The notes: generated by a model from the letters alone, not told the origin. A stretch of 16,693 nucleotides of DNA from Promethearchaeia archaeon (GCA_046483985.1 JAWOCD010000064.1:1-16693), one strand, 5' to 3'; numbered from the stretch's first letter, positions 274 to 16,693 are shown. Numbers and translations: made by a program.

Positions 274-1584
274 TTAAGTCCAACCGAATGCTGGTTCGAA
301 ACCATATATAAAGCCGAGATAGATACAAACCAGAGCTGCACCAATAATTAGTGCGTAAAGAATGAGCCGCCCGTTTCGTGTTTGGAAGAACCCCTCGAAA
401 ATACCGGACTCATCGATCTTTTCGGGATTCTCCATATATTCCAAATTATCTTTTTTGGGTTTTCGAATTGTTAATGTCCCGAGATCCATAAAATCACTTG
501 CCCGAATTCTCACATTGTTTACCCATTTTTCATGGAAAAAAGATAAATACACCACCGAAACTAAAAATGGAATTGCTGCACCCATCAAAACTATCAACCC
601 AAACCAGATCAGTGTGGTGTATCCTAATTCAATTGCGAGTGCTGGACTTGCCATTAATTCCGAATATTCTATCCCTTTTTCTCCGAGTAAGAATGAAGTA
701 GCAAAGTCTTGAGCCAAATTAAAGACTAAAACTATTCCAAAGAATCCGAGAATTTTACTTAATAATCCAGTTCTCAAATAGTACCCTAAACGATGAGTAT
801 CGTGGTACCGATCAATGCGGTATGCTTGGGTATCTTCGGAAATCCAAAATATAGGCATAACAAACATAAGAATCAGTAAGGTAAGTGGACCCATATAAAG
901 CGTCAAATCAATAATCATTTCCTCGACGTTCCAATATAACTCCGGATCCCATGCATAAACGGGTCCCCACAGAAACGGTGCAACAACTTGAGCAATTATA
1001 ACGCTCATACCCAAAGAAATGGATACCACTTCCATAACTCTCTTGAGCACAGTTTTTGTATGAGCAAAATTACTTCCTAAATCCAAATCTACGGGATATG
1101 CTTCAAGGTAATAAAGATCTTTAGTTCTTATAGGATACCCCAGGATGATTTCCGTGGGTTTTGGAAATTTTCTGGCCACTGTTTTTCTTAAGTATTTGAC
1201 AATGCTGGTTGAGGCAAGTCTTGACCCAATTTCACCCCATGATAAAATGATAATTACCGAAAGTCCTAGAAAAACGAGTGGAGCCCACCAATAGAACCAA
1301 CCTTCAAGTTCCCAGACAGAACTAACGCCTTCATAAGCAAAAACCTCTTCCATAGTTTCAGGATAAAGCACCTCCAAGTAAATTCCGCTGAAATAAAAGA
1401 ATTGTGCCAAAAAGAGCGCCACAAAAATAATAATAAGTACGGCAAGATTCGTTTTTGGCATAATTACCTCAAACTTATCATCGGAAGTCGTTTCATCTAT
1501 ATGGTCTGGACCCCTTCGATAAATATACTTAGAATCTTGGTACGATTGCAAATTTTCTTTTTCATTTTGTTTTGCGTTCGACAT
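274..1584 (-). CDS. Hypothetical polytopic membrane protein (436 aa, about 7-8 TM helices)
   Basis: Long ATG-initiated ORF with repeated hydrophobic segments (LAVLIIIFVALFLAQFFYF, WWAPLVFLGLSVIIILSW, GPLTLLILMFVMPIFW, ILGFFGIVLVFNLA, LIWFGLIVLMGAAIPFLVSVVYL, LILYALIIGAALVCIYLGFIY) separated by charged loops. No family motif recognised. Confidence 0.85.
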   Translation of the reverse strand: MSNAKQNEKENLQSYQDSKYIYRRGPDHIDETTSDDKFEVIMPKTNLAVLIIIFVALFLAQFFYFSGIYLEVLYPETMEEVFAYEGVSSVWELEGWFYWWAPLVFLGLSVIIILSWGEIGSRLASTSIVKYLRKTVARKFPKPTEIILGYPIRTKDLYYLEAYPVDLDLGSNFAHTKTVLKRVMEVVSISLGMSVIIAQVVAPFLWGPVYAWDPELYWNVEEMIIDLTLYMGPLTLLILMFVMPIFWISEDTQAYRIDRYHDTHRLGYYLRTGLLSKILGFFGIVLVFNLAQDFATSFLLGEKGIEYSELMASPALAIELGYTTLIWFGLIVLMGAAIPFLVSVVYLSFFHEKWVNNVRIRASDFMDLGTLTIRKPKKDNLEYMENPEKIDESGIFEGFFQTRNGRLILYALIIGAALVCIYLGFIYGFEPAFGWT

Positions 1585-1792
1585 AGATAATATTTCCTTT
1601 TTTTATTAAATATATTGAATATAAATAATATTTCTTCACTCTTTAAATATTTTTATTTAAACCTTTATGTTTACATATAGTGTTAAGGTTATTTCATCGA
1701 ACCCTTATAGATGAAATTATATATATTAAAGGTTAATTATAACTCATTAAACTCATTTAATTTCATAATAACAGATTTAGAAGTGAAAAGAA
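1585..1792. promoter_or_regulatory. Divergent promoter region (membrane protein / JAMM pair)
   Basis: Very AT-rich intergenic segment between divergent genes with several TATA-like boxes (ttatatatatt ~1716-1727, aaggttaattataa ~1729-1742, tttaaatattttt ~1642-1654). The functional boxes cannot be assigned. Confidence 0.5.
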
Positions 1793-3331
1793 TTGTCAAC
1801 AAAACGCCAAGTTTCTCAAATGGACGATAATAAAACCGTTACTGTTAAGCCATTGGCTTATTACAAAATGTTAGTCCATATTTTACGGTTTGGTAATAAA
1901 GTGCGTGATAAACGGCAATATAAAGAAGTCATGGGAATTCTAATTGGGAGATTAGAAGGAGAAAAAGATGAACATGGGGTGCAAGATGTAATTATTGAAG
2001 ACGCTGTCCCCATCTCTCACGGAGGATCCATAGAAGTTGCATTTAAACAAGAAGATTATATCTCATTTTCGATGGTGGATGCAAAATACGCGGAAAGAGA
2101 TCCACCGCTGTTTAGTGTCGGATGGTATCACTCCCACCCTAACCTGAATATATTTTTCTCTTCCACCGATATCAAAAATCAACTCGGATGGCAAACACCA
2201 AATCCCAGCGCGGTGGGAATCGTTTTTGATCATACGTATTTAGAAAATCCAAACGATCTTGGATTTCGCACATTTCGATTGGACGATCCATCGAAAGGAC
2301 CGATGTCTGCATACCACGAGGTAAAAACGATCGTAGAGCCGCCTGATGATCTGGACTTTTATATTAAAATAATGAATTTAATTGGCAGTATTCATTCCAA
2401 AGAACCTCCAATTTTGGAACTCAATGAAACCCCGGACTTGTTCGGGGACGTAATTATTCCTGGCCAAAGTCAGGTTATGCCCAAGCAACCGACTTTTCAA
2501 GTGACTGACTTTCTCTCCTCGCTCAAAAGTTCACTTTCACAATTTATTGAACTGTCCGTGGAACCGCTTATCCGGTATTTAAATAGTTGGACGGAGGCCT
2601 TGACCAAGCAAATACGAGATACGAATTTAGCTATGAGAAATAAAATCGTATCCCTAAAAAATATTATCGGTCAAGGGATTGAAAAGATTCAGAACACCTT
2701 TAAAATTCAATTACGCGATAAATTAAATGAGATTGACATTTACTTTGATGACCGGTTTGAGGATTTTGACGCGCAGTCCCAAGCCATCAGCGATGCACTT
2801 GCTTCATTAACGGAAAGCGTAACCCAAAAAATAGATGATTTATTTGAAGAGAAAGTTACTCCTTCTGTGGACAAACTGCTTGAATCATTCGATGAAAATG
2901 AAGAGGAACTTAAAGGACTGAATGATTCCTATACGACCTATAATGAAAACTTAAACTCTCAAGAGAATAACATTGCTGAGGTTTTGGACAATTTTAAAGA
3001 GGTAAAAGAATCCTCAAAAGCCAACCTTGCGGAATTAAAGAGTTCCTTTAACGTAAAGCTGGAAGAAAATATCGGGAATATGGAATCAAACATGTTGAAT
3101 TTATACAAAAAATTTGGGGACCTTTCCAATAATTTTGAAATCATCACTGAATTTCTTGAAAGTGCCCAAGAGAGTATCCCAAAAAAGCTCAAAGAGTTAG
3201 AGGAGGAAAATGAGCAGTTGAAATCCGAAATCGAACGACTAAAGTCAAACAAAAGTAAAACATCTAAAAACGAATCAAATAAAAGTGAAACATCTAAAAA
3301 CGAATCAAACAATACACAAGGAGGAGTCTAA
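1793..3331 (+). CDS. MPN+/JAMM metallo-isopeptidase (Rpn11/CSN5-like) with long C-terminal helical/coiled-coil region, paralog 1; alternative and probably true start is ATG 1820
   Basis: KMLVH helix; catalytic Glu in EVMGILIG (codon 1925); complete JAMM motif GWYHSHPNLNIFFSSTD (H-S-H-x7-S-x2-D, nt 2129-2170); GIVFD and FRTFRL strands. The C-terminal ~280 aa are E/K/L/N-rich and heptad-like. Confidence 0.93.
   Translation: MSTKRQVSQMDDNKTVTVKPLAYYKMLVHILRFGNKVRDKRQYKEVMGILIGRLEGEKDEHGVQDVIIEDAVPISHGGSIEVAFKQEDYISFSMVDAKYAERDPPLFSVGWYHSHPNLNIFFSSTDIKNQLGWQTPNPSAVGIVFDHTYLENPNDLGFRTFRLDDPSKGPMSAYHEVKTIVEPPDDLDFYIKIMNLIGSIHSKEPPILELNETPDLFGDVIIPGQSQVMPKQPTFQVTDFLSSLKSSLSQFIELSVEPLIRYLNSWTEALTKQIRDTNLAMRNKIVSLKNIIGQGIEKIQNTFKIQLRDKLNEIDIYFDDRFEDFDAQSQAISDALASLTESVTQKIDDLFEEKVTPSVDKLLESFDENEEELKGLNDSYTTYNENLNSQENNIAEVLDNFKEVKESSKANLAELKSSFNVKLEENIGNMESNMLNLYKKFGDLSNNFEIITEFLESAQESIPKKLKELEEENEQLKSEIERLKSNKSKTSKNESNKSETSKNESNNTQGGV
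3245..3310 (+). repeat. In-frame 30-bp tandem duplication (about 2.2 copies) encoding SNKS(K/E)TSKNE
   Basis: 3251-3280 aaaagtaaaacatctaaaaacgaatcaaat versus 3281-3310 aaaagtgaaacatctaaaaacgaatcaaac (28/30 identical), preceded by a partial tcaaac. Confidence 0.9.
3319..3326 (+). promoter_or_regulatory. Shine-Dalgarno site for JAMM paralog 2, embedded in the end of paralog 1
   Basis: aggaggag ends 7 nt before ATG 3334, and only 2 nt separate TAA (3331) from that ATG, indicating an operon with translational coupling. Confidence 0.75.
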
Positions 3332-3333
3332 AG

Positions 3334-4737
3334 ATGTCTAATCAACCTACCAGAATTCCAGAAAATTTAAAGACCGATGAAGACGAGAGACCGGTTACAG
3401 AAGAAGGAAAAGTAATTATCACCAAGGAAGCCTTCTTCAAAATGATGACACATGTATTGCGGTTTGCCCATGAGGACTTAGATAAAAGTATTGAGGTAAT
3501 GGGCGTTTGCATCGGCAAGCAAGAAGCCGATTCCATTAAAGTCGTGAATGCAGTCCCAATTACCCACGGTAATAAAGTAGAAGTTGGATTTTCGCAAGAA
3601 GATTACGCTGCGTTTGCCAAAGTTGATGAGCATTACTCCGAAAAAGGCCTATATTCTGTTGGATGGTATCACTCTCATCCCGGATGGGGGCTCTTTTTTT
3701 CCGACACGGACAAGAAAAATCAATTATCATACCAATCTGAACAATCACCCTACGGGTTTGGCATCGTATTTGATCATACGTTGATGGGCGAGGAGGAAAA
3801 TTTGGGATTTGATGTTTACCGACTTGCAGACCCTTCCAAAGGTCCAAACAGCGACTATGTCAGAGTGACATATGAACTCGAAGAACCGAACTCCTTAAAT
3901 TATTTTGATTGGGTCAAAAAATTAGTGGAGGATACTCAGAGAAAAGAACCCGTGTTAATTAAAGAATTAAAGGAGAAAAATGTCGGGGCCCCAGGAGAAC
4001 TTCAGGAGATACCCACAACCGAGGAGCAAGAGGCAAAATCCGAAGATAAATATCCGCAGATCAATCCCGTTATTGAGGGGTTTGATGAAGGGACGGCTAA
4101 GATTTCGGAAGTATTTTTAAACGACCTCAAAGATCAACTTGGGATGTGGACTAAGGATATGAATCTCGGCGTGTTAAGCGGGTCGAAGCACCTGAAAAAT
4201 ACCCTCACCGAAATGGAAGAAGGGTTTTCGTTTGGGATTGATAAAGTTCAAGAATGGTTTGAGAGTAAATTAGGAGAAATTACGGGCGAATTTAAAGAAG
4301 AAGTTTCTGGTTACTTAGATAAACGGATGAATGCGCAAGAGGAATTAAAAACGGATGCTCTGGAAGTTTCAGACACGCTCTCAGAGAATGTCGAAGAGAG
4401 TGTAAGCTCGAAATTAACCGAAATACTATCCCAGGTAGAAGATAGATCCGCTCAATTGACTGAATCGATTAGCAGTATACAGGAAAAAGGAGAGAAAACA
4501 AATTCATCTATTGAACAAAATTCGGAAACAATCTCCAAGTTAAAAACGGAACTCCACAATTTAAGCGATTCAGTGAAAGATGGGCTTAAAGAAAGCGGGA
4601 GCACCCTTGAAAAAAATTTTATCAAGCAGATGAAAACGTTAAGCGAAGGGGTTTCGAAGTTGGAGAATGCTTATTCCGAGTTGGAAGGAATCAGCAAAAA
4701 TTTGAAAGAAATTTCAATGGAATTCCGCAATCTCTAA
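3334..4737 (+). CDS. MPN+/JAMM metallo-isopeptidase (Rpn11/CSN5-like) with long C-terminal helical/coiled-coil region, paralog 2 (467 aa)
   Basis: KMMTH helix; EVMGVCIG (Glu codon 3493); complete JAMM motif GWYHSHPGWGLFFSDTD (nt 3670-3711), close to Rpn11 GWYHSHPGFGCWLSGVD; GIVFDHT and FDVYRL. Acidic helical C-terminal half. Confidence 0.94.
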   Translation: MSNQPTRIPENLKTDEDERPVTEEGKVIITKEAFFKMMTHVLRFAHEDLDKSIEVMGVCIGKQEADSIKVVNAVPITHGNKVEVGFSQEDYAAFAKVDEHYSEKGLYSVGWYHSHPGWGLFFSDTDKKNQLSYQSEQSPYGFGIVFDHTLMGEEENLGFDVYRLADPSKGPNSDYVRVTYELEEPNSLNYFDWVKKLVEDTQRKEPVLIKELKEKNVGAPGELQEIPTTEEQEAKSEDKYPQINPVIEGFDEGTAKISEVFLNDLKDQLGMWTKDMNLGVLSGSKHLKNTLTEMEEGFSFGIDKVQEWFESKLGEITGEFKEEVSGYLDKRMNAQEELKTDALEVSDTLSENVEESVSSKLTEILSQVEDRSAQLTESISSIQEKGEKTNSSIEQNSETISKLKTELHNLSDSVKDGLKESGSTLEKNFIKQMKTLSEGVSKLENAYSELEGISKNLKEISMEFRNL

Positions 4738-4765
4738 TTTATTTATTTTTTAAAAATTTCCTTTC
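4738..4765 (+). terminator. Putative T-rich terminator after the JAMM pair
   Basis: tttatttattttttaaaaatttcctttc directly follows the stop codon. TATA-like boxes (ctttaataa ~4771, ttatataaa ~4795) precede the next ATG. Confidence 0.4.
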
Positions 4766-4812: not shown

Positions 4813-7152
4813 ATGTCCGTAATAACTCAAAAACTAATAAATAAAAAATCAATCCTAATTTTAGCAGTATTTCTAATTTTACTTATAAGTATTCCGCTTT
4901 TACTATTCGCTTCTCTTACCTATGCTAATGATTTTTCCGTTGAACGGGAGTATTATCGAAGTTCTGACGATACCGTTTTTTCTGGCATCATATATCGCCC
5001 AGACCCGGATGTATTCCCCGGTGAAAGACCAGGAATTATCGGGTTGCATGACTTTATGGAATCAAAGGAATCTATGAAACGATATGCCGAAAATTTGGTG
5101 TCATCTGGTTATGTAGTACTTCTCTACGACCAACGCGGTTTTGGAAATAGCGAGGGACGATGTCATTTTGCCGATGTTGGGTATGAACTAAAAGATTTAG
5201 ATGCTTCCATTAGCTTTCTTCAATCGTTAGACTATGTCGATGCGGATTTGATTGGGACTTTTGGGATGGGGTATGGAGCTTCCATTGCAATAATGGGGGC
5301 GGGACTGTATAACGATAAAATAAATACCACCTTTGCAATAAATCCGTATTATAACCTTACTGATACATTTGACGTTAATTATAATTCTCTCCAAGGAGAG
5401 ATAATGAAAAAGATAGCAAATGATTTAGGTTATATCCCTCATTTAGTTTATCCCAACCCCATAAATAAAACACAAAAGCATACCTTAGAGAGTTTCTTAG
5501 ATATGTTAAGCGATATACCTGCTACCTCGGAATTTGAAAGTTTTTTTGATGTTAAAGCGGATGAATTTTCGTTTAACATTGAAGAGTTAGAAAGACGCTC
5601 CCCCCTTAACCATCTTTCAACGATTAATAATGAATCGCTCTTTCTAGCGAGCGGCACAGAGAATTCTGTCTATCCTCCTCAGAGCGAGGAAATAGATAAA
5701 GATCTGCGGCAAAATTATCAAATCTATTCATATTACCATAAATTTGAAAAAGAAGGTCACAATATTTTAGATGAAAAATTAGATTATGCCTTGATTAACT
5801 TTTTCAATTTTAGGTTGAAACAAGAAACCGTAGAAGAGCACGCGTTTCTTGAAAAACCCTACATCTCTGAGTTAGATAAAGAATTAAATTTTGAAGCTAA
5901 AGATACCACTCCCTATAGTGAAGATAATTTACTCCTTTTGCATATCTCTATCCTCCTTTCAATCATCCCATTGGGTTTTCTCATTCCTTTTATCGTTTTT
6001 ATAGTCTTATTTTATCTGCTTATCTTGCTCATCCCCCATGTCGAAGCCAAGCGAAAACAGCGCCAGAAACGATATATCACCCAACTCGACGAAAAAGAAT
6101 CCAAAAAAGGCTCTAAGAATCCGAAAAAAAAATTTACAGTTAGTGAGAATGGAATGGAGATATTGATCTATTTAATTACTCTTATAAGTTTAATACTTAT
6201 TCCGATTGTGGGAATGATCTATTTAGGGAATTACCTCTTAGCAATCATTATAATAACCTTAATTGCAGATTTTCTTATTTCGGTTTTTATGTATAAGAAA
6301 ATTTCAACTAGAAAAAAGCCGCTCCTTCAGTCCCAACTTCTGGTTCAAGATAAAGTTAAAAATAGCAATAAAGTTAAAGAAAATAATCGAAAAGCAAAAG
6401 ATAAAATAGATCTATTGTTACAATTCTTGAATAAAAATCCGTTTTGGCAGTTTATATTTGTTCTTGCGGTATTTAGCGGTCTTGTGTTATTTATCTCGTT
6501 CATCGCAGTTCCGATTGTGATGGTCTTATTTGATTCTCTCTTTAATCCGATCTTTTTGAACATTATCACCTCAAGTCTTCTCCTCACAATAGGAAGTAGT
6601 GTACTTCTTGTAATTGATAAGAGTATTTTTAATCCCCGATTACATTTCAACGATTACGGCTTATCGCCCCAAAAAATCCTAAAGGGAATCGGCTTTGGCA
6701 TCTATATCGTACAAATGCCCGTAATTATATTAATTATCGCCAGTTATTTCTTAATTTTGCCGCAACCGTTGCTGCAAATAGGGTATGCACCTTTCTATTT
6801 ATTATTGCCTTTTATTTTTTTATTCTTTTTTAGTTTTGATGTAGTCCTTAGAGTGTTGATTCAGGAAAAGATTAAAGGAAATACATTGCCCAAGAAAATT
6901 GGAGAATTTTGTATTGGAAGTTTGTTATACGCACAAGGTATTGGATTGTTCGGATATTTACTTTTCTTTCACTCGAATTCAACCATCTTCATCTTTTCGG
7001 GACTTTCTTTTGGTCTGGGCGGATTATTCGGATTTATGCTTATTTTTTTTAGTGCTATTGGGACACTAAATTATATGGTTATAAGATCCCCGCTCGCTTC
7101 AAGTACAGCAAATACACTAATCCTATTTGCAATTCTCGTAGTTATTCTTTGA
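4813..7152 (+). CDS. Membrane protein: N-terminal signal/TM, alpha/beta-hydrolase fold (probably inactive) and C-terminal multi-TM region resembling a degenerate CPBP/Rce1-like domain (779 aa)
   Basis: Hydrolase-fold hallmarks GIIYRP, PGIIGLHDF, GYVVLLYDQRGFGNSEG, DLDASISFLQSLDYVDADLIGTFG, RSPLNHL, FEKEGHN. About 9-10 hydrophobic helices follow residue ~375. Confidence 0.88.
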   Translation: MSVITQKLINKKSILILAVFLILLISIPLLLFASLTYANDFSVEREYYRSSDDTVFSGIIYRPDPDVFPGERPGIIGLHDFMESKESMKRYAENLVSSGYVVLLYDQRGFGNSEGRCHFADVGYELKDLDASISFLQSLDYVDADLIGTFGMGYGASIAIMGAGLYNDKINTTFAINPYYNLTDTFDVNYNSLQGEIMKKIANDLGYIPHLVYPNPINKTQKHTLESFLDMLSDIPATSEFESFFDVKADEFSFNIEELERRSPLNHLSTINNESLFLASGTENSVYPPQSEEIDKDLRQNYQIYSYYHKFEKEGHNILDEKLDYALINFFNFRLKQETVEEHAFLEKPYISELDKELNFEAKDTTPYSEDNLLLLHISILLSIIPLGFLIPFIVFIVLFYLLILLIPHVEAKRKQRQKRYITQLDEKESKKGSKNPKKKFTVSENGMEILIYLITLISLILIPIVGMIYLGNYLLAIIIITLIADFLISVFMYKKISTRKKPLLQSQLLVQDKVKNSNKVKENNRKAKDKIDLLLQFLNKNPFWQFIFVLAVFSGLVLFISFIAVPIVMVLFDSLFNPIFLNIITSSLLLTIGSSVLLVIDKSIFNPRLHFNDYGLSPQKILKGIGFGIYIVQMPVIILIIASYFLILPQPLLQIGYAPFYLLLPFIFLFFFSFDVVLRVLIQEKIKGNTLPKKIGEFCIGSLLYAQGIGLFGYLLFFHSNSTIFIFSGLSFGLGGLFGFMLIFFSAIGTLNYMVIRSPLASSTANTLILFAILVVIL

Positions 7153-7196
7153 TTTAAATTGAAGTATCCCCGCCCTAAAGGACGGGAATTTAAATT
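7152..7196. mobile_element. Short GC-rich hairpin resembling an IS200/IS605-family end (solo remnant); may also act as a terminator between convergent genes
   Basis: gaagtatccccgccctaaaggacggga (7161-7187): stem cccgccc/ggacggg (one mismatch) with a taaa loop, flanked by atttaaatt at 7152-7160 and 7188-7196. No transposase gene in the window. Confidence 0.5.
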
Positions 7197-7277: not shown

Positions 7278-8360
7278 CTACTCTTGGGCTTTAATTTCTT
7301 CCAAATTTTCTTCTGGCTTCGCTGCTTCGATTCCTTGTTTTCTTAAATCCTCTATTCTTAACTTAATTTTATGGATCAGTTCCATTTTAGGCTCGAAAAC
7401 CTCAAACTCATTTACGCTTTCCTCCTCTTTTAAATTAACCCCTTCTTTTGCTCTTTCTAAACAATATAAAGAATAATCCAATTGATTTGATTTCTCGTAA
7501 TAGTTGGCAAAATTGGTCCAGACTATGATCAAATGGTAATCATTATTTGCAACGGCTAATGCTTCTTTTAAACACATTTTTGCCGAATTCAGTTTATTTA
7601 CTCTAAAATACGCATCAGCTAAGTTGATCCAAAACGATGAGTTATCGGGTTCGAGTTTGATTGCCTCTTTAAAACTGTCGATGGCATCTTGTATATTTAT
7701 CTCATACAGATTCAATAGTCCCAATAAATTATAAAGATAGGGTTTCTTTATAAATTGAAGTGCCTCGGTTAATACATCAATTCCCCTTTTATAGTTATTG
7801 CTTTTAAAGTAGGCTAACCCTAATTTATACCATGCCAACCCATGCCGTGGCTTATTTTCGACCACTTTTTTCAATAACTCTTTAGCGGTTTTATATTCGT
7901 CTTTATTTAAACAAATTGACCCCTGCAAATAATGGGCAACAGCATTTGAAGGATCTATGGACAAAGCAGATTCTACTAATTCTAATGCGATCTCCTCCTG
8001 TTCATTTTGGAAAATTAAAGCCAAATTAAGTAAAGAATAAAGGTCCTTCGGATCCCGTTCGATCGTTTCGGTCAAATATTTCTTGGCGCATGATTTCATT
8101 TTTTTGATGGTACATATTTCCCCTAATTTTCGATATGCAAACCAATTTTCGGGATTTAGTTCTATTGCGGTCTTGAAATATTCCGATGCGGTCTTATACT
8201 CTTCTTGCAGAAAATAGGTTATGCCGATATAGTTAGGGTAAAGAGTATTATCCTTTTCTTTTTTGTGGAGCTTCTTAAAATGATCTAATGCTTCATCATA
8301 TTTTTCTTCTAGGATTAAATTCTTTCCATGCTCTATGTCTTCCGTATTAAATTTATCCAT
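7278..8360 (-). CDS. Tetratricopeptide repeat (TPR) protein (360 aa, about 8-9 repeats)
   Basis: 34-residue periodic TPR consensus: YIGITYFLQEEYKTASEYFKTAIELNPEN, AHYLQGSICLNKDEYKTAKELLKKVVENKP, AWYKLGLAYFKSNNYKRGIDVLTEAL, DAIDSFKEAIKLEPDNSSFWINLADAY. No TM segment or enzymatic domain. Confidence 0.93.
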   Translation of the reverse strand: MDKFNTEDIEHGKNLILEEKYDEALDHFKKLHKKEKDNTLYPNYIGITYFLQEEYKTASEYFKTAIELNPENWFAYRKLGEICTIKKMKSCAKKYLTETIERDPKDLYSLLNLALIFQNEQEEIALELVESALSIDPSNAVAHYLQGSICLNKDEYKTAKELLKKVVENKPRHGLAWYKLGLAYFKSNNYKRGIDVLTEALQFIKKPYLYNLLGLLNLYEINIQDAIDSFKEAIKLEPDNSSFWINLADAYFRVNKLNSAKMCLKEALAVANNDYHLIIVWTNFANYYEKSNQLDYSLYCLERAKEGVNLKEEESVNEFEVFEPKMELIHKIKLRIEDLRKQGIEAAKPEENLEEIKAQE

Positions 8361-8558: not shown

Positions 8559-11500
8559 TTAATTAGTTTGTTCGTTCATCCGCTTGCCCTGTTTTTCCTT
8601 TTCATTAAACTTCTTTTTTTCGTAATCAGATGGTTTTCGTAGAAAAAGCCAGAAATACGAAATAATGACAATAGTTGAGATAGACAATGATGTTATGATG
8701 AATAAGAATATCGTGGTAAAATCGTCAGGTTTTATCTCTTTCCGTATTTCTAAGGTTAATTCTTCTGAAAGGCTACTATTTCCATACTCTCCTATTGATT
8801 TGACTCTAAGATAATAATTCCCTTGACTCAAGTTAGATAACGAAAATTCATTTGTCATAACCTCATATATCTTTATATTATCCTTCTCCGAAACATTAAA
8901 ACCCGTTTTAGTTGAAAGATAAATCTTATAGGAAATCGCATATAAAATGTTCTCCCATGATAATATATTTTCTGGATCAAATCTCATACTTGTAGACTCG
9001 AAATATGGCGCTATGGGGATATACCTTATCTGAGTATATACATTATTGGAAATTGTAGAATTCTTAGAATAATTGCTCGCTATTATTGCATAGTAATATG
9101 TTTCACCTTGTGCAAAGTCTGAAGAATCTGTATAACTGCTCGTGGAAGTGTTGCCTAATACAGATACAGAAGGATGAGTATAATTCTCCTTCGTAATTTC
9201 ATCGGTTGCGCGTAATACATAATAGGTTTTAGCACCGTTATGGGATTCCCACATTAAATTTACAGTACCTCCATAGTTTGGGGATTCTATATCGTAGAGA
9301 TGCGGTTTACTTGAAAAATTAACCGAGTAACTCAAAATAACTTTATGAACGCTCGAATTATATATCGCTATTTCGAAGAGACCTTGATCTTTTCCATTAT
9401 TAATGGGCACCTTGATCCCTCCATTATGCACCTTTATTTGGGTTCCAGGGATATTCGGCGCTTGATCCTCCACTTTGACCTCTCCTTTAGTGGTAATAAC
9501 AGTAAAGAGAGTTCCGTTCGGAATTTGATCGCCGGTTACATTCCTTAATTCATCATATGACAACTCAAATTCTATGTCCTTGAAATTAAATTCGCTGACA
9601 TTGGATCGAAGTTCATATTTTTTATTAAATTCCCCGGTTCTCATCCAATAATAAAAAAAGTCATTAAAATAATGCGAATCATCGAAATAGGTATTTATGA
9701 AATAATTTAAAATTCCAGCCCCTAATATTTTTGAAGTATAGCCCAAAGTGCAATTTAATTCGGTAAAATAGGTCTCATTTTCTCCCATATTACCGCTGGT
9801 TCCGAATATGGTCCGATGATCTCCCCATGATGTGGAAGGATAACCTCCTAATTCTTTGGTAAAATCCGAAGTAGTATTGATAATTGCTGTCATGTAAGAA
9901 GAAAGATTGTAAAAGGAAGAATTGGCACCAATCAGTTTCGGAAAATAGATTTTATTGTTTTTATTATTATCAGAATCGCATACGATATATCGAACAAAAT
10001 CGATGCCGTATGAGGAAGATATGTTATTAATGGGGACATTCCTTTTAAGAGAATACTCTTCAAGAAATCCTGACATATAATCTTCTATCTCGAAGGAGGA
10101 ATAAGGGACATTGAAAAAAATCAATCTCGTGCCGTTTTCGGAAGAATGATTTAACAATTCGATCGTCTTTGGGGAATACTCTTCCAATGGATTTGCAATT
10201 ATAATATTGGAAAACTCGGAATAATTAAGCATTTTATGCGCAGCTTGCACATTAAATCCATGAGTATGCATTTGATATGCAAAAGCTAATAGACCATCAG
10301 GAGACGGATTAATTGCCCGGGAATAATTATTCTGTAAAAATAAGACCTTTTCCTCTAATCCTCCATCTTTTTCAAAAAAATATACGAGTACCGAAAACGT
10401 ACCGTTTAACGATGTTTTATTAAAAAAAAATTGAATATATCCGTCTGACTCAACAGACACATTCCATGTGGTTTTTCCGCTCGCATTTTCCTTAAACAAT
10501 GGGTCTACCTCACCCCCTTCAATTTGTGCAGTCACATTATATTCGTTGGAGAGGGAAAGGTTTAATGGGAACGTATCATTCTGTGCAGCAGTGAACAAGG
10601 TATATTCAGGCTCGATTTCTAACCCCTCTTCAACCTCCTCGCTCAAAGTGATATTGTAAAACCAATCCAAAACGTTTAAAAATAATTTAGAATTATTTCC
10701 GTAATTTATACCTGGGTAAGAGCTATTGAGGTTCCATAACCATTCGGTATCGGTGGCGCAAAACACCTTCCCGCCGTCTGGCTCTTCGTATCCTCCCATG
10801 ACTGTTGCGCTTTCATTTTCGTAAGAAACATTTGCAATGGAAAAGGCGTCATTATAGGTATTCAATTCGGCTACAGCCATCATACTAAGATTATTCAAGT
10901 TAAAATAATGTGATTCAAAAATAGGCCAATCACTCTCATCAAGTACATAATCATCTGAATTAAAAATATCGTCTGTAGTTAGCTCCATATCAAATTTTTC
11001 CAAAAGAGGGTTTTGAAATTCGCTGATATTAAACACATTATGCTCCCCCAAGATGATTAGATTCCCCCCTCTTTTTACAAATTCCTCTATTGCATCCAAT
11101 TCTTCCTCCGCATAGCTACCCCATTTAACTACGTTTAGAAAAAGGGTATCATTTTCGGTAAATGTGTCGATGTGATTTAAAAGTCCATCGGTTATGGTGG
11201 ACACCTCAAGAAAGTATCGTTGTAATAAGATATTTAACTCCGAATACCCCATATAGCCTGTATCCCACACAGAAAATAGCTGCTCGTGTGACATATCAAA
11301 AAAGATTCGCCTTCTCGACACATTTCTCGACAAAGGTGGTAAATCTCCTGTTATGGCCTCATCTTCTTTTATGTCCGTTGTTTCGTTTTCGGATAATACT
11401 TCGTTCTCCTGCAATTTATAACCTTCGTTTTCTGGAGTTATAGCATTGTTCGTTCTATAATTGTTATTTGAATTTATTTGATAAGAAACACCGGATTCGC

Positions 11501-11720
11501 TCATATGGGGGATTATTCCTACTGAAATCATTAACGGTATTAAAAAAAGGCGAGTTAATAAGATAAAATTCTTTTTTTCTGATCTCAATTTCATCCCCAT
11601 AAAATTCGAACGAGTCTTATAATAATCTAATTGTTTATACATCTCATTCCATAAAAAATTTTTCAACGTGGGGGAAAACTTATCTTTGGTTCCGAATATC
11701 CCAAATGAAAATATACTCAC
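8559..11720 (-). CDS. Type I membrane-anchored surface glycoprotein with two GIFT (GldG/IFT52, DUF4350/GATase-like) domains, Ig-like spacers and two FN3-like domains; true start may be ATG 11600 or 11594
   Basis: Signal-like KK-NFILLTRLFLIPLMISVGII. GIFT-like IFFDMSHEQ...GYSELNILL...YAEEELDAIEEFVKRGGNLIILGEH...NPLLEKF...NSKLFLNVLDW (~11313-10660) and a second diverged copy (~10350-9642). FN3-like VNLMWES...YYVLR...SYTD...GETYYYAIIASN and LSWE...YKIY...GNYYLRVKSIG. C-terminal TM (~8715-8640) with a Lys-rich tail. Dozens of N-x-S/T sequons. Confidence 0.85.
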   Translation of the reverse strand: MSIFSFGIFGTKDKFSPTLKNFLWNEMYKQLDYYKTRSNFMGMKLRSEKKNFILLTRLFLIPLMISVGIIPHMSESGVSYQINSNNNYRTNNAITPENEGYKLQENEVLSENETTDIKEDEAITGDLPPLSRNVSRRRIFFDMSHEQLFSVWDTGYMGYSELNILLQRYFLEVSTITDGLLNHIDTFTENDTLFLNVVKWGSYAEEELDAIEEFVKRGGNLIILGEHNVFNISEFQNPLLEKFDMELTTDDIFNSDDYVLDESDWPIFESHYFNLNNLSMMAVAELNTYNDAFSIANVSYENESATVMGGYEEPDGGKVFCATDTEWLWNLNSSYPGINYGNNSKLFLNVLDWFYNITLSEEVEEGLEIEPEYTLFTAAQNDTFPLNLSLSNEYNVTAQIEGGEVDPLFKENASGKTTWNVSVESDGYIQFFFNKTSLNGTFSVLVYFFEKDGGLEEKVLFLQNNYSRAINPSPDGLLAFAYQMHTHGFNVQAAHKMLNYSEFSNIIIANPLEEYSPKTIELLNHSSENGTRLIFFNVPYSSFEIEDYMSGFLEEYSLKRNVPINNISSSYGIDFVRYIVCDSDNNKNNKIYFPKLIGANSSFYNLSSYMTAIINTTSDFTKELGGYPSTSWGDHRTIFGTSGNMGENETYFTELNCTLGYTSKILGAGILNYFINTYFDDSHYFNDFFYYWMRTGEFNKKYELRSNVSEFNFKDIEFELSYDELRNVTGDQIPNGTLFTVITTKGEVKVEDQAPNIPGTQIKVHNGGIKVPINNGKDQGLFEIAIYNSSVHKVILSYSVNFSSKPHLYDIESPNYGGTVNLMWESHNGAKTYYVLRATDEITKENYTHPSVSVLGNTSTSSYTDSSDFAQGETYYYAIIASNYSKNSTISNNVYTQIRYIPIAPYFESTSMRFDPENILSWENILYAISYKIYLSTKTGFNVSEKDNIKIYEVMTNEFSLSNLSQGNYYLRVKSIGEYGNSSLSEELTLEIRKEIKPDDFTTIFLFIITSLSISTIVIISYFWLFLRKPSDYEKKKFNEKEKQGKRMNEQTN

Positions 11721-11926: not shown

Positions 11927-14900
11927 ATGGAAAGAAATTTAACGCACACGCGAAAGCGCCAATTGGCTTTTTTATGTATTGGCGTTTTAGCGTTACAATT
12001 TGTAGTTTTTGGTTTACTTTTAAACAACGAAAATGCAATGACTACGATAGATAACGGGAATGAGAATAATGATAATGATGATTTGGGTAAGAACGAAGAA
12101 ATTCTTTCTGGAGAGGGGACCTTACCGAACATTACGCGGGAAGATGCACCCCTCATTTTAAAGAATGAGTCTAACCCAGATCTATGGGCTAAACTCCACG
12201 GATTATCCGTGGAGAACATACGAATTGCATATTTTACCGAAGGAAACGATTGGGAATTGGCTCCTTTCCAGTTGGATGAAAAGGGCTACTTGCGAACATT
12301 TAAATATGAGATGGCTTATGCCGCAGATGTGAGTACTAGTTGGACATTGGGGAGTCTTGATGATCTTGCCCTCAACAGTTGGGGGCACTATGAGGTGAGA
12401 CACGGATATGTCGGCAGACATATTGACGCGACTCCGGGTGATGCTCGGGAAGACCAACAACTGACGAAGACCGAGGCGGAACAATCCATCTATGACTACA
12501 GGGAAAATGAAACATATTTTGAAGATCCTTATCCGGAACCGAGTGAGGAAGAAGAATGGAACAGCACTATACATTCGGAAGATGACCCTCCCAAGTTGGA
12601 GCAATTAAATTATCGGATAGATTACGATGATGAGCTGGTCTTTCCCGCCAAAAACGGGAAAACAGTCGGCGAACATTCGTGGTGGAACTATGAGGAATTT
12701 CCCAATCGATATCGGGTGGAAATAACCGACCCCGTGGACGGCGGTCAGAGTTGGCTGTATATCTATTACAACGAAGAGGACACAAGTCGAGATCCAGAAT
12801 CGGGAAAATTCACTACCAATGCCCCGGAAAAAAGTTCTTACATCCCGCCGGGAGAAAAAAGCTATGTGGATTGGGACAAAGAGAACCTTCAGATCACTGC
12901 AGACACATACGAGCTGGGTTTTGATCCGGATAATTTAAACCTTCAGGAATCCTTAAGAATTAAAGAGTCGGGATTAGCGCCGAACGACCTTCTTACCACC
13001 AAGGATAAGCAGTATTTTTCGATTTGGTTTCATGCCTATATGAGCGAGTCCGGAGCAACCCTGGATGTGACCGATTCCACGGAGGTATGGAGGGACGGAG
13101 AATGGTATGAGGGAACGTATAACGACCAATATTCCGCACTGGGGTACGGCATCGCCATGGATCATTCGTGGGAAGATGCTACTTCGGGGGAACGTACCGC
13201 TCATCCCGATGATTATAATGACGGAAATGACCCGGTGACCCAAGGTTTATGTACTGAGGAGGAAACCAATACGGTGCAAGATGATGGGGATGATACCGGA
13301 GGTATTGACCCAGACCAGGATCAAGACGGCAACACGGCTGAAGATCTTCCGTTCGTTCGAGGCTGGTTTTACAATGCGAGTCGAGAGATCGAACGGGACG
13401 GCACCGGCAATATCAACAATCTTAACAGGGATGATTACTTGGTGCCGCGGCATGATTTAACCGCCCCGCAAGGGTATACGGGTACACACGAAGCCGCAAT
13501 CGATGGTCCAGTGAGAACTATTTTGGACAGGTTCACGGTACAGATGATTAATTTAGATGTAGGCGATCAAATAGGGTATGCGGAGTTATGGACTACAGAA
13601 ACGGAGACCTATAAGTTTTACGGAGATATGCTGGAACATGATCCCATGCAATTGAACTTGACAGAAATTGCCGGCGATGACGATTTGATAACCTTGTATC
13701 CCCATTATGCGTTTATCTTCGGTGAGCGATATAGTGATTTTGTTCGGCAAGATGCTGAAGCGGGAAACGCATTTACAGCATTGGGACGTGCTCCTTCTAA
13801 TGTTCCTGGCATAAAAGAAGATTATCAACAATGTGATGACGAGGGAAAAACTAAATGGACTAATGACTATGCAAATAATTATGAGACCAATTCACTTATA
13901 CTTACGCCCGATGGGCAAGGAGGCGATGATGTTTCGAGCCCAACTGTTGGAAGCTGGGATGATGACTACTACAATAATCCATCAGAGGGTCATTATGATG
14001 ATTCTACACCATTAGTACCGGATAATGCCTCAAATCCGTTAAGTGACTGGAAATATCTACACACCAGTTCTGGTGGGATGTGGTCCTATGTCCCGTACCA
14101 AGAGTGGTGGGCGATGTTCCAACAAGATGGAGGATATTTAAGTACCTATTGGGCCGATGAGGCTGATTATTCGGAATTATCGGTATTCGGACATCGCGGA
14201 GATACGATGGGGTCAACTGAAGAATTTGAGCGAAGATACGTATTCGGTAATTTCACCTATTGGGAAAGCTTACGGGAATACGCCAGAATGAAGGATGATA
14301 TCAACGAGAATGTTGAATATGTCGAAGAGGAGTGGCCGGGGGGCGTCATTTTCGAAGACTCCTCCGTGTACGTCAACGACGAACTCCAGTCGGAAACGGC
14401 ATATTTAAAAAACGGAGATGAGGTAAATATTTTAGTCGATCTATATTATAACGAGAGTTTAACTAAGGACCTTTTTACGGTTGATACGTCAAGTTTCAAC
14501 TCAAATAATGATTCTAAGGTGGAGGTATTTGATGAAAGCAGGGACATTTGGAATATTTCGTTTACCGTGGACTCAGACGAACCCGACCGCGTTCCTCCTT
14601 CATCTGGATACGCTGTGAATATTACGGTTGAGGTGGATCCCGAGGGATCTTATATCGAAGAGTTATATCTGGATAACGACCCACCGAACCCGCCCGATAC
14701 GTTTAATGGAGAACAACCTGCTGGGGTTGCACAAGTGGATCTTAACTGGAGCGGCGCCTCGGATAACGGGAAATTAGACTATTACGTGATCTATCGAAAC
14801 GGACAACCTGTCAAGACATTGGATGCTCCCGCCAGCGAATGGACGGACACCGATGTTACCGATGGAGAGACCTATACTTACTCTATCAGAGTGTACGATA

Positions 14901-16693
14901 TGGCCGGTAATTATAAAGAATCGACCAAACAACCAGAAGTTACCATTGACTTGGATTTCACGCCCGCAACGCCAGCGCCTTTAGACCCCTACTTTAATGA
15001 CACGGTCACGCTTGACTGGTCGGAAAATCCCGGCAATACCACGATAATTGACTATTATCGGGTTCACTGGGCAAAGGATTCCGAAGGGCCGTGGGATTCG
15101 CTTGAATGGTTAGCCGGTGATGAGACGACATATGAGTTTGATCCGATGGCACATGACACTTCTCCCGAGAACGGGACCTATTATTTGAAATTAGAATCTT
15201 ATAATGACGATGAAGGGATGGGGCTCTTTTCGGGCTCGGAATCCTCGTTCTATGATACCGAGACACCGATACCGGGGGCAATAACGGATATTCCCGACGA
15301 ATATTACCCGTCCACGGCGGAAATTTATGTGGATTGGGGCGGACACTTTGACGCTTTCGCGGGCATCGATTATTTTGAATTATATCGAAGCGAGAATAGC
15401 AATGCACCCGAAGATTATGAAAAAATTGCGACTCGCCCCGAGGACAAGTCCTATTATTACGATACCGACCTTACGAATGAAACTACCTATCGATATTTTG
15501 TACGCGTATACGATAAAGCAGGGAATTTTGACGAAACGTCGGTAGAAAAAGTGACCTATTACGATACCTATGTGGATGCCGAACCCAATCTGAAAGTCGA
15601 CACGATAGAGATTTCGAAGGAGGAAGCGCAAAGAGGGTCGGACTATCCATTCGACGTAAATGTAACCGTTAATAATATCGGCAAAGCCGAAGGAGATGTA
15701 AGTTCAATTTGGTTGAAGTTTCAGCATCCTACATACGGAAATGTTACGGATCAATACAATGTTACGGATCCAGATCCGAATGTACCCAAGACCGTTCCCG
15801 CTGAAGATTCCGTCACATTTACCTTCACCGATTGCTACGCATACGAATACGCATATGAGGGGTCAATTACGGTCGATGCGGCGATTCGCGGAGACACGAA
15901 CGATACTAATGCCGATACCACGGATTCGATATTGATTGAAGATGTCGTCATCCCGAATTTCATAAGCGCAGAAGTATCTCCAGACCCCTTAGAATCAGGA
16001 AACGAGCTAACGATTGAAACGGAGATAGACGATAAAGGAGTTAACGTCAAAACTGTAACTGCCGCGATCTTTACCCCAGGTGATGAGAAATTGGGTGAAA
16101 TTGAGTTGATAGAAAGCGATGGAGTATGGAACGGAACATGGGACTCTTCGGCTACTGATCCAAATGAGGATTATTATACCAATATTACCGCATCAAATGA
16201 ACAAGAACAGACGAATACAACAACCGTATTTTTTGATATCGTGGAAGAAGACACGGAACCTCCCGAGGTGAGCATTACGGATGCAGATACATCGGCAGAA
16301 TATGAAACCGGTTCGATTTCTGTCAACGCAACGGTCACGGACAACCGTGAATTGGACACGGTCAATATCACATTTTACGAACCCGATGCTACTCTTATCG
16401 GTACCTATGAGATGGACAATTCATCAGGTGGCACCTTTACCTACACGTGGGATGTGGGAACATACGCACCCGCAGAAGATTATAACTTTACGATCATTGC
16501 CGAGGATGTATCCGGAAACGTCAACGATACCGAAGGGGATACCTTTGCCATCGAGGACACGGTACCTCCCGAGGTGACAGATATTGTTGCCGAAGAGTCG
16601 GTAGAGTACGGAACCGAGTTAAATGTCAACGCAACGGTCACGGACACCCACGAATTGGACACGGTCAATATCACGTTTTACGAACCCGATGCT
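11927..16693 (+). CDS. Giant secreted/surface acidic protein, 3'-partial (at least 1589 aa): signal/TM, ~750-aa unknown domain, Ig-like, 3 FN3-like, CARDB-like and repeated Ig-like domains
   Basis: Manual translation from ATG 11927 (MERNLTHTRKRQLAFLCIGVLALQFVVFGLLL...) finds no stop before the window end, which explains its absence from the ORF track. FN3: DPPNPP...VDLNWSGASDNGKLDYYVIYRNG...WTDTDVTDGETYTYSIRVYDMAGN (~14670-14915) plus two more to ~15540. CARDB-like PNLKVDTIEIS...VNVTVNNIGKAEG (~15583). DTxPPEV...VNATVTD repeats from ~16250. Confidence 0.92.
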   Translation, partial: MERNLTHTRKRQLAFLCIGVLALQFVVFGLLLNNENAMTTIDNGNENNDNDDLGKNEEILSGEGTLPNITREDAPLILKNESNPDLWAKLHGLSVENIRIAYFTEGNDWELAPFQLDEKGYLRTFKYEMAYAADVSTSWTLGSLDDLALNSWGHYEVRHGYVGRHIDATPGDAREDQQLTKTEAEQSIYDYRENETYFEDPYPEPSEEEEWNSTIHSEDDPPKLEQLNYRIDYDDELVFPAKNGKTVGEHSWWNYEEFPNRYRVEITDPVDGGQSWLYIYYNEEDTSRDPESGKFTTNAPEKSSYIPPGEKSYVDWDKENLQITADTYELGFDPDNLNLQESLRIKESGLAPNDLLTTKDKQYFSIWFHAYMSESGATLDVTDSTEVWRDGEWYEGTYNDQYSALGYGIAMDHSWEDATSGERTAHPDDYNDGNDPVTQGLCTEEETNTVQDDGDDTGGIDPDQDQDGNTAEDLPFVRGWFYNASREIERDGTGNINNLNRDDYLVPRHDLTAPQGYTGTHEAAIDGPVRTILDRFTVQMINLDVGDQIGYAELWTTETETYKFYGDMLEHDPMQLNLTEIAGDDDLITLYPHYAFIFGERYSDFVRQDAEAGNAFTALGRAPSNVPGIKEDYQQCDDEGKTKWTNDYANNYETNSLILTPDGQGGDDVSSPTVGSWDDDYYNNPSEGHYDDSTPLVPDNASNPLSDWKYLHTSSGGMWSYVPYQEWWAMFQQDGGYLSTYWADEADYSELSVFGHRGDTMGSTEEFERRYVFGNFTYWESLREYARMKDDINENVEYVEEEWPGGVIFEDSSVYVNDELQSETAYLKNGDEVNILVDLYYNESLTKDLFTVDTSSFNSNNDSKVEVFDESRDIWNISFTVDSDEPDRVPPSSGYAVNITVEVDPEGSYIEELYLDNDPPNPPDTFNGEQPAGVAQVDLNWSGASDNGKLDYYVIYRNGQPVKTLDAPASEWTDTDVTDGETYTYSIRVYDMAGNYKESTKQPEVTIDLDFTPATPAPLDPYFNDTVTLDWSENPGNTTIIDYYRVHWAKDSEGPWDSLEWLAGDETTYEFDPMAHDTSPENGTYYLKLESYNDDEGMGLFSGSESSFYDTETPIPGAITDIPDEYYPSTAEIYVDWGGHFDAFAGIDYFELYRSENSNAPEDYEKIATRPEDKSYYYDTDLTNETTYRYFVRVYDKAGNFDETSVEKVTYYDTYVDAEPNLKVDTIEISKEEAQRGSDYPFDVNVTVNNIGKAEGDVSSIWLKFQHPTYGNVTDQYNVTDPDPNVPKTVPAEDSVTFTFTDCYAYEYAYEGSITVDAAIRGDTNDTNADTTDSILIEDVVIPNFISAEVSPDPLESGNELTIETEIDDKGVNVKTVTAAIFTPGDEKLGEIELIESDGVWNGTWDSSATDPNEDYYTNITASNEQEQTNTTTVFFDIVEEDTEPPEVSITDADTSAEYETGSISVNATVTDNRELDTVNITFYEPDATLIGTYEMDNSSGGTFTYTWDVGTYAPAEDYNFTIIAEDVSGNVNDTEGDTFAIEDTVPPEVTDIVAEESVEYGTELNVNATVTDTHELDTVNITFYEPDA
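16247..16693 (+). repeat. Intragenic tandem repeat with a ~303-306 bp unit (Ig-like domain); second copy truncated by the window end
   Basis: 16321-16390 and 16624-16693 match at 66/70 nt. gacacgg(a/t)acctcccgaggtga occurs at 16250 and 16556. Confidence 0.92.

Follow-up and report, generated by a model that had tools for sequence, protein, structure and literature searches.

Heterodimers of an active and an inactive MPN protein form the catalytic cores of the proteasome lid, the COP9 signalosome (CSN), eIF3, and the BRCC36 isopeptidase complex (BRISC) and BRCA1-A complexes. To our knowledge, such pairs are regarded as eukaryotic inventions. Two adjoining genes of an Asgard archaeon, here termed A and B, raise the question of whether a prokaryote builds an enzyme of the same design. 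Both lie on the window analyzed here, which is the entire 16,693-bp contig G000:C39 of a metagenome-assembled genome (4.06 Mb, 97% complete). The preferred answer, with a probability of about 0.62, is that A and B form a two-gene operon for a heterodimeric JAMM/MPN isopeptidase. In this complex, catalysis would fall to A, as a zinc metalloprotease like Rpn11, CSN5 and BRCC36, and B would be its paralogous partner. B would bind A via the canonical MPN-MPN interface (helix α1 and the helix after the MPN core) and would also join it via a parallel, in-register, two-stranded coiled coil of ~230 residues (~35 nm) with 11-residue periodicity.

A coupled pair of paralogous MPN genes

The stop codon of A (TAA, 3329-3331) and the ATG of B at 3334 are 2 nt apart. 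An earlier, sequence-only reading of this DNA had described two adjoining genes with an internal Shine-Dalgarno sequence, and both the open reading frame (ORF) coordinates and GGAGGAG at 3320-3326 confirm it. In 13 of 13 fetched neighborhoods of relatives, B follows A with gaps of 0-12 nt. In 43 species-level loci the genes overlap or are ≤15 nt apart, except in one locus where the gap is 57 nt. Because the gaps stay short across relatives, the tight coupling is not due to chance. Upstream of A, a TATA-like block (1718-1746) is invariant at all but one of its 29 positions among the window and its closest relatives, L054 and L055, and the flanks farther upstream are unrelated. This block is likely the promoter of the A-B unit, and the T-rich run at 4738-4751 is likely an archaeal terminator. 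The unit is collinear with its closest relative, L054, from 1718 to 4740, where collinearity ends. A probably starts at the TTG at 1793, because L054 has an ATG at the aligned position, behind the conserved GAAGTGA. With its 2-nt gap, Shine-Dalgarno sequence, conserved promoter-like block and T-run, A-B looks like a self-contained bicistronic unit.

The paralogy of A and B across the MPN domain, as first proposed, is evident by BLASTP (31% identity over 461 columns, E 1e-61) and spans the tails as well. All of the motifs quoted at the time are present in the translations: KMLVHILRF/KMMTHVLRF, EVMG, GWYHSHP, GIVFDHT and FRLDDPSKGP/YRLADPSKGP. Both proteins carry the complete JAMM motif E...H-x-H-x7-S-x2-D, formed by E45, H113, H115, S123 and D126 in A and by E54, H113, H115, S123 and D126 in B. 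Both also match the Pfam JAB family PF01398 (A 52.8 bits, B 59.5 bits; cut-off 22.5), with weaker scores for Prok-JAB PF14464 (26.3 and 34.2 bits).

AlphaFold2 (AF2) monomer models, with a mean predicted local distance difference test (pLDDT) of 73.6 for A and 75.3 for B, consist of an MPN domain, a poorly ordered linker of ~40 residues and a long helix. The order of secondary-structure elements in the predicted B domain is the same as in the predicted MPN fold of A. In the VIA comparison of the A model, EMC9 ranks first (Z 15.1), followed by CsRpn11, the Rpn11 homologue of Caldiarchaeum subterraneum (Z 14.1, root-mean-square deviation (rmsd) 2.8, 145 residues), Rpn11 (Z 14.1, rmsd 3.5, 160 residues), CSN5 (13.5) and BRCC36 (13.1). 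These values are tied within ~2 Z, so no single family is singled out. The 50 best structural matches are eukaryotic MPN subunits and CsRpn11 (Z 12.7-15.1). Among solved structures, single-sequence searches match CsRpn11 best (1e-10), along with CSN5, Rpn11 and BRCC36, and AMSH more weakly. A profile of 86 A orthologues, searched against the Protein Data Bank (PDB), gives the same picture: CsRpn11 at 1e-14, Rpn11 at 1e-11, BRCC36 and CSN5 at 1e-9 to 1e-10, and AMSH at 1e-7. Chains of the AfJAMM and PfJAMM type are absent from the PDB matches at E ≤ 1e-3 and from the top 50 structural matches, which is not proof of unrelatedness. The profile and structure matches thus uphold the original assignment of A and B as Rpn11/CSN5/BRCC36-like rather than generic prokaryotic JAB proteins. 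Zinc-dependent isopeptidase activity of A is inferred.

A conserved putative enzyme and a partner often degenerate at its active site

The two partners differ sharply in how they keep their active sites. Among 134 orthologues of A, 131 have EHHSD at the five catalytic positions, and the remaining three are N-terminally truncated. B reads EHHSD in only 39 of 132, the motif being lost in ~70% of B proteins. Its degenerate variants include QHHSD, EIRTT, EHRSD, ESHSE, ELHSG and many others. When one genome per species is counted, the JAMM motif is intact in 44 of 44 A proteins and 8 of 44 B proteins, and B is without a zinc ligand or the catalytic Glu in ~80% of species. An MPN-minus partner is not what the window encodes, its B having all five residues, but is found in 36 of the 44 species. 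As B is intact here and degenerate in most relatives, the system is of the MPN+/MPN(+/-) kind, and the dimer of this genome may carry two active sites. Mean pairwise identity of the MPN domain is 64% for A and 45% for B.

The B tree shows 20 changes of the five-residue motif string, and B is intact at three separate positions on it, the window being one. Parsimony requires a minimum of three changes between intact and degenerate states, with gains and losses not separable. The variety of degenerate motifs, together with the assumption that a lost site is never rebuilt, points to many independent losses. Nevertheless, degenerate B is under purifying selection and is not decaying. Between close species of the QHHSD, EHRSD and EIRTT lineages, the ratio of nonsynonymous to synonymous substitution rates (dN/dS) is 0.12-0.17 for B and 0.06-0.15 for A in the same pairs. 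Invariant or near-invariant residues of B cluster in helix α1, the post-MPN helix and the linker, and not in the active site. Conserved linker motifs are ELNET...P in A and LQEIP in B, and the distal end of the stalk is conserved as well. Since this site is lost in most species, the conserved job of B would be structural or allosteric. Such a pattern would be expected if B were a scaffold or allosteric partner with dispensable catalysis, like Rpn8, CSN6 and Abraxas/KIAA0157. The degeneracy of B in relatives and the long helical tails are additions to what the sequence-only reading had noticed.

Predicted architecture of the proposed heterodimer

Complex prediction for the A-B pair used residues 1-478 of A and 1-467 of B, with a separate alignment for each protein, in three runs alongside three controls. 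Contacts of A are numbered from the ATG at 1820; adding 9 gives the TTG numbering. The interaction prediction score from aligned errors (ipSAE) is 0.61, 0.66 and 0.68 for A-B. The heterodimer proposed earlier is thus predicted with a median of 0.66, which resemblance to solved dimers may have raised; the best control reaches 0.00. The mark applied to this score is reached by 58 of 80 solved complexes and by 2 of 110 mismatched pairs. Partner pLDDT is 65-71, and the runs share at least 40% of contacts.

Confident contacts between the MPN domains join residues 11-29 and 174-197 of A with residues 34-49 and 182-208 of B, i.e. helix α1 and the post-MPN-core helix of each protomer. Conservation is higher in the predicted MPN interface of B than in the remainder of the domain (0.734 vs 0.655, permutation p 0.02). 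Beyond the MPN domains, the stalks are predicted to pair in register and in parallel, with contacts spaced 4-3-4, i.e. every 11 residues. In A, the stalk helix spans residues 240-475 in the same ATG numbering, and its pLDDT reaches 94. Conserved hydrophobics occupy the contact positions of the stalks (p 1e-4), which is expected of any amphipathic helix. The BRCC36-KIAA0157 complex combines pseudo-two-fold MPN packing centered on α1 with a coiled-coil helical bundle (PMC4579573), and the predicted A-B interface matches this geometry. The stalk may serve as a spacer or tether.

Distribution and origin of the pair

Conservation of the pair in related genomes, on which the proposed heterodimer was said to depend, is extensive. 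The tandem is found in 15 of 15 sampled genomes from four other genera of the window's family, and a scan of one genome per species gives 45 species with full-length A, in which B comes directly after in 43 of the 43 whose contig extends far enough. Database matches likewise bear consecutive NCBI locus tags (e.g. JSV62_12125/JSV62_12130). Outside this family, a phylum-wide search of 121 genomes recovered no full-length A/B relatives; all genomes that have them fall in one Lokiarchaeia family-level clade of the GTDB and are close kin. Single A-like MPN proteins with long tails and no adjacent B occur in Candidatus Sigynarchaeum springense (L103) and in L101 and L102, at 25-32% identity over ~420-460 residues, and may represent the state before duplication. 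In Promethearchaeum MK-D1, no A or B was found with this query, only a third paralogue termed MPN-C.

In an unrooted, quickly built tree of MPN domains from Asgard archaea, A and B form separate clades (support 99 and 96, respectively) that are near neighbors, and one further paralogue, on contig C126, groups near them. Both stand apart from the clade of Rpn11-like proteins of ubiquitin operons and from the MPN-C clade. That A and B are mutual neighbors restricted to one family suggests a lineage-specific duplication independent of the eukaryotic pairs, and their resemblance to those pairs is probably convergent rather than ancestral. The sequence-only reading had envisaged a heterodimeric module analogous or related to the cores of the lid, CSN or BRISC. 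The heterodimer and the analogy are supported by the prediction, while for relatedness the distribution points the other way, to independent duplication.

Ubiquitin system and candidate substrates

No ORF of the window matches a Pfam family for ubiquitin, E1, E2 or RING proteins, as had been noted from the sequence, and the locus is thus not the canonical archaeal ubiquitin operon. That operon lies on contig C99, where ubiquitin, E1 and E2 genes accompany a 267-aa Rpn11-like gene (C99:32662-33465). The genome encodes further ubiquitin, E1 and E2 genes elsewhere and at least 11 MPN ORFs. Its ubiquitin genes include C99:30566-30733 and C70:3975-4166. Substrates of A-B would most likely be conjugates or precursors of ubiquitin-like proteins encoded elsewhere in the same genome.

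By Pfam, the window has no PCI, UEV or vWA gene. PCI complexes are not known in archaea (Fuchs et al., PMC6043591). A search of the genome with a PCI model gives matches elsewhere, but the same model also matches bacterial control genomes. One such match, a 990-aa ORF on contig C97 (26.4 bits, with the same caveat of bacterial matches), lies ~2.7 kb from a gene for a 193-aa MPN protein without the JAMM motif (the two loci being C97:22475-23056 and C97:25747-25935). This could be an MPN-/PCI neighborhood.

Genomic setting and a possible larger assembly

Table 1. Features of the A-B unit on the window (positions counted from its first letter).
Feature	Position	Strand	Description
Gene A	1793..3331	+	512 aa, TTG start; MPN+ (JAMM) protein, invariably the catalytic partner
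Gene B	3334..4737	+	467 aa, ATG start; paralogous MPN protein, JAMM intact here, degenerate in most relatives
AT-rich, TATA-like block	1718..1746	+	5' of A; likely archaeal promoter of the A-B unit
Shine-Dalgarno-like element GAAGTGA	1780..1786	+	6 nt ahead of the TTG of A; kept in L054 and L055, with ATG at the aligned start codon
Shine-Dalgarno sequence of B, GGAGGAG	3320..3326	+	lies in the final codons of A, with 7 nt between it and the ATG of B; read from the sequence
MPN domain of A	1838..2392	+	residues ~16-200; MPN fold in AF2 model
Helical stalk of A	2537..3244	+	one predicted helix of ~236 residues (~35 nm); AF2
MPN domain of B	3394..3936	+	residues ~21-201; AF2 model
Helical stalk of B	4054..4731	+	AF2 helices 241-298 and 302-466
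T-rich run	4738..4751	+	directly after the B stop; likely archaeal terminator; read from the sequence

In most relatives, A and B end a conserved block of Roadblock, ATP-grasp, AAA+-vWA, MPN-C, zinc-ribbon, A and B genes, with the orientation AAA-vWA(-)/MPN-C(-)/Zn-ribbon(+)/A/B. MPN-C is a third MPN+ protein of ~316 aa, divergently transcribed and located ~1 kb upstream of A in 32 of 45 species loci. Its neighbor, a protein of ~734 aa, joins a ChlI/MoxR-type AAA+ domain to a vWA domain (L041:3280-5484; equivalent G000:C95:5551-7725). The zinc-ribbon neighbor is a Lys/Glu-rich protein with a double zinc ribbon at its end. The AAA-vWA protein beside MPN-C presumably recalls the vWA partners of eukaryotic MPN dimers (Rpn10, MERIT40). 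L054, whose A and B are 79% and 74% identical to those of the window, has A separated from the zinc-ribbon gene by two short MPN- genes of 208 and 196 aa, and its locus thereby holds four MPN genes in tandem besides the divergent MPN-C.

This conserved order invites the idea that A-B is the core of a larger, PCI-less assembly with MPN-C, the zinc-ribbon protein and AAA+-vWA, following an MPN/vWA logic like that of the lid (Rpn11/Rpn8/Rpn10) or BRISC (BRCC36/Abraxas/MERIT40). The idea is doubtful, though it fares better than the other alternatives. The present genome has the block in two parts: Roadblock through the two MPN- genes are on contig C95, and A-B sits apart on C39 with its own conserved promoter block retained. 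Moreover, Promethearchaeum MK-D1 has an MPN-C orthologue but yielded no A/B to this query, which indicates that the modules can exist apart. As all of the genomes are close kin, the synteny that they share is weak evidence. A composite reading, to be taken as tentative and at somewhat less than even odds, holds that A-B is an independent prokaryotic enzyme/pseudo-enzyme MPN heterodimer, caught at different stages of partner death across species and with B intact here. Its ~35-nm coiled-coil stalk would tether a deubiquitinase to a platform, possibly with MPN-C, the zinc-ribbon protein and AAA-vWA as a PCI-less machine like the lid or BRISC.

On C95, the abutting MPN- genes of 196 and 208 aa (G000:C95:2136-3353; L007 1267-2484, minus strand) lie 3' of the zinc-ribbon gene, the position held by A-B in relatives, and have lost their zinc ligands (WYRST, WARNS). 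The end of contig C22 (G000:C22:12770-12963) is 99.5% identical to window positions 4551-4743, at the 3' end of B, and then diverges. The genes of C22 past the shared stretch differ from those of the window, and among them is a homologue of the ~94-aa gene found after B in other genera. The divergence may be an assembly fork or a strain variant, and the downstream context seen in the window may not be the only one. For this reason, the separation of A-B from its usual block may be real, or an artifact of assembly or strain mixture. At the other end of the window, positions 1-75 are a dispersed repeat that recurs at 94-99% identity on contigs C2, C127, C126, C70 and C45 and is perhaps the reason for the assembly break.

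The pair is flanked by a gene for a 436-aa multi-pass membrane protein with no Pfam match (274-1584, minus strand) and, after B, one for a 779-aa protein in which an α/β-hydrolase is fused to a membrane domain (4813-7152, plus strand). Both are absent from the syntenic locus of L054, and they represent insertions or rearrangements flanking the pair; farther downstream, L054 does have the TPR, 1053-aa and giant Ig-repeat genes in common with the window. BLAST at 1e-3 against the loci of 13 relatives gives no match for the ORFs at 274-1584, 4813-7152, 7278-8360 and 8559-11720, which are thus not conserved partners. The 779-aa gene is followed, immediately past its stop codon, by a GC-rich, hairpin-like element of 35 nt (7156-7190; core CCCGCCC-TAAA-GGACGGG), a dispersed intergenic repeat with copies of 94-97% identity on 15 or more other contigs. 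It has no Rfam match, and the whole window is without any Rfam match reaching the gathering score. The window closes with the start of a giant Ig-repeat surface protein (11927-16693, plus strand), open at the contig end and 4342 aa long in L054. G+C content jumps from ~0.32 to 0.45 at the start of this gene, and tandem repeats on contig C92 match its final 440 bases.

Weighing the heterodimer against other readings

Five points weigh against the heterodimeric isopeptidase. B is JAMM-intact in this genome and could be an enzyme of its own. Ubiquitin-system genes are absent from the neighborhood of the pair in every locus examined, so its substrate is a guess. MPN-MPN dimers have already been solved, and the success of A-B in complex prediction may partly reflect likeness to those structures. 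CsRpn11, the best-matching solved protein, is monomeric in solution (PMC6043591), so MPN dimerization is not automatic. Lastly, the tails have a hydrophobic period that is also compatible with surface-active amphipathic helices.

The first and fourth of these points would suit independent enzymes, i.e. monomers or homodimers with substrates of their own, whose tandem arrangement stems only from duplication and a shared promoter. Full JAMM motifs in both proteins here and an intact B in 8 of 44 species are in line with this, as are the activity of CsRpn11 as a monomer (PMC6043591) and the ability of BRCC36 also to homodimerize (PMC4579573). Yet ~80% of species have a degenerate B, in which purifying selection and coupling to A persist; no genome has A without B where the contig permits a check, and the heterodimer prediction passes its controls. 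Independent enzymes are therefore an unlikely explanation of the pair.

A different role for the tails would place A-B at membranes. Both tails have a hydrophobic period of 3.65 residues, i.e. 11/3, and might act as apolipoprotein- or perilipin-like amphipathic helices on membranes or lipid, making A-B a membrane deubiquitinase in the manner of AMSH at ESCRT sites. The family profile does match apoA-IV, apoA-I and apolipophorin-III chains (E 1.7e-7 to 7e-4), but these matches may be compositional. Against Pfam Apolipoprotein PF01442 the tails score 26.2 bits (A) and 22.6 bits (B), far under the curated cut-off of 90 bits, and membership in that family was rejected. In the complex model the tails lie in register, with conserved hydrophobic contacts every 11 residues, and a hydrophobic content of ~28-30% suits a two-stranded coiled coil. 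The membrane role is accordingly improbable, although the coiled-coil and membrane-helix readings of the tails are not mutually exclusive.

Least probable is a non-proteolytic scaffold with a vestigial JAMM motif, like eIF3f/h, the Prp8 MPN domain or EMC8/9: both proteins do exceed the cut-off of UPF0172, the EMC8/9 family (A 31.3 and B 45.4 bits; cut-off 24.4), and EMC9 as top structural match is within ~1 Z of Rpn11 and CsRpn11, but the invariance of the five catalytic residues in every full-length A orthologue is hardly explained except by catalysis.

Comparison with known systems

The preferred reading of A-B as a heterodimeric isopeptidase can be set beside four kinds of known protein. 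Exchangeable apolipoproteins (PF01442; apoA-I, apoA-IV, apolipophorin-III) share with the A/B tails long amphipathic helices, the 11/3 periodicity and a weak profile likeness. Unlike them, the tails are without the Pro-punctuated 22-mer organization and are predicted to pair rather than fold back.

CsRpn11 (PDB 6FJU/6FJV; PMC6043591) has the same JAMM motif and is alignable with A/B through Ins-1. However, it is a protein of ~200 aa, encoded within a ubiquitin-E1-E2-RING operon (PMC6043591), whereas A and B are long-stalked, paired and without ubiquitin-system neighbors. The CsRpn11-type gene of the present genome is instead the 267-aa gene on C99, whose clade is separate from A/B.

Rpn11-Rpn8 and CSN5-CSN6 follow the same logic of an active and an inactive MPN protein, and both enzymes are matched by the family profile (E 1e-11 for Rpn11, 1e-9 for CSN5) and by structure (Z 14.1 and 13.5). 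In contrast to these complexes, the A-B locus is without PCI subunits and without helical-bundle tails of the lid type, the MitMem_reg and CSN5_C Pfam domains are not matched, and no connection with a proteasomal ATPase is apparent.

Searching the literature brought up no account of an MPN+/MPN- pair in archaea, although absence from one library is not proof of novelty. The Asgard pair would bring the logic of an enzyme with a dead partner to a prokaryote, in which the partner's site has been lost in many ways and the partner itself has been kept under selection. As a simple two-gene system, it would offer a natural series on how a pseudo-enzyme partner evolves from a duplicated enzyme, and its predicted stalked architecture is not known from eukaryotic MPN complexes. 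Its importance is limited by its confinement to one Lokiarchaeia family and its probably convergent origin.

The closest parallel is BRCC36 with KIAA0157 (ABRO1) or Abraxas, the core of BRISC and BRCA1-A (PMC4579573), BRCC36 being among the best sequence and structure matches of A-B. Both systems combine an MPN+ enzyme with a paralogous MPN partner that, for A-B, is a pseudo-enzyme in most species. An α1-centered MPN-MPN contact and C-terminal helices packed as a coiled coil are likewise common to both, as predicted for A-B. The differences lie in the stalk, which in A-B would be a single helix of ~230 residues (~35 nm) in each protomer and in the BRCC36 pair is a short two-helix bundle; in B, which is catalytically intact here and in 8 of 44 species; and in the restriction of A-B to one family. 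The UEV scaffold (BRCC45) and stand-alone vWA protein (MERIT40) of BRISC have no counterpart among UEV or vWA genes in the window. By analogy, A-B would act like BRCC36-Abraxas or Rpn11-Rpn8, but it is not filed as a member of either family because its distribution argues for an independent origin.

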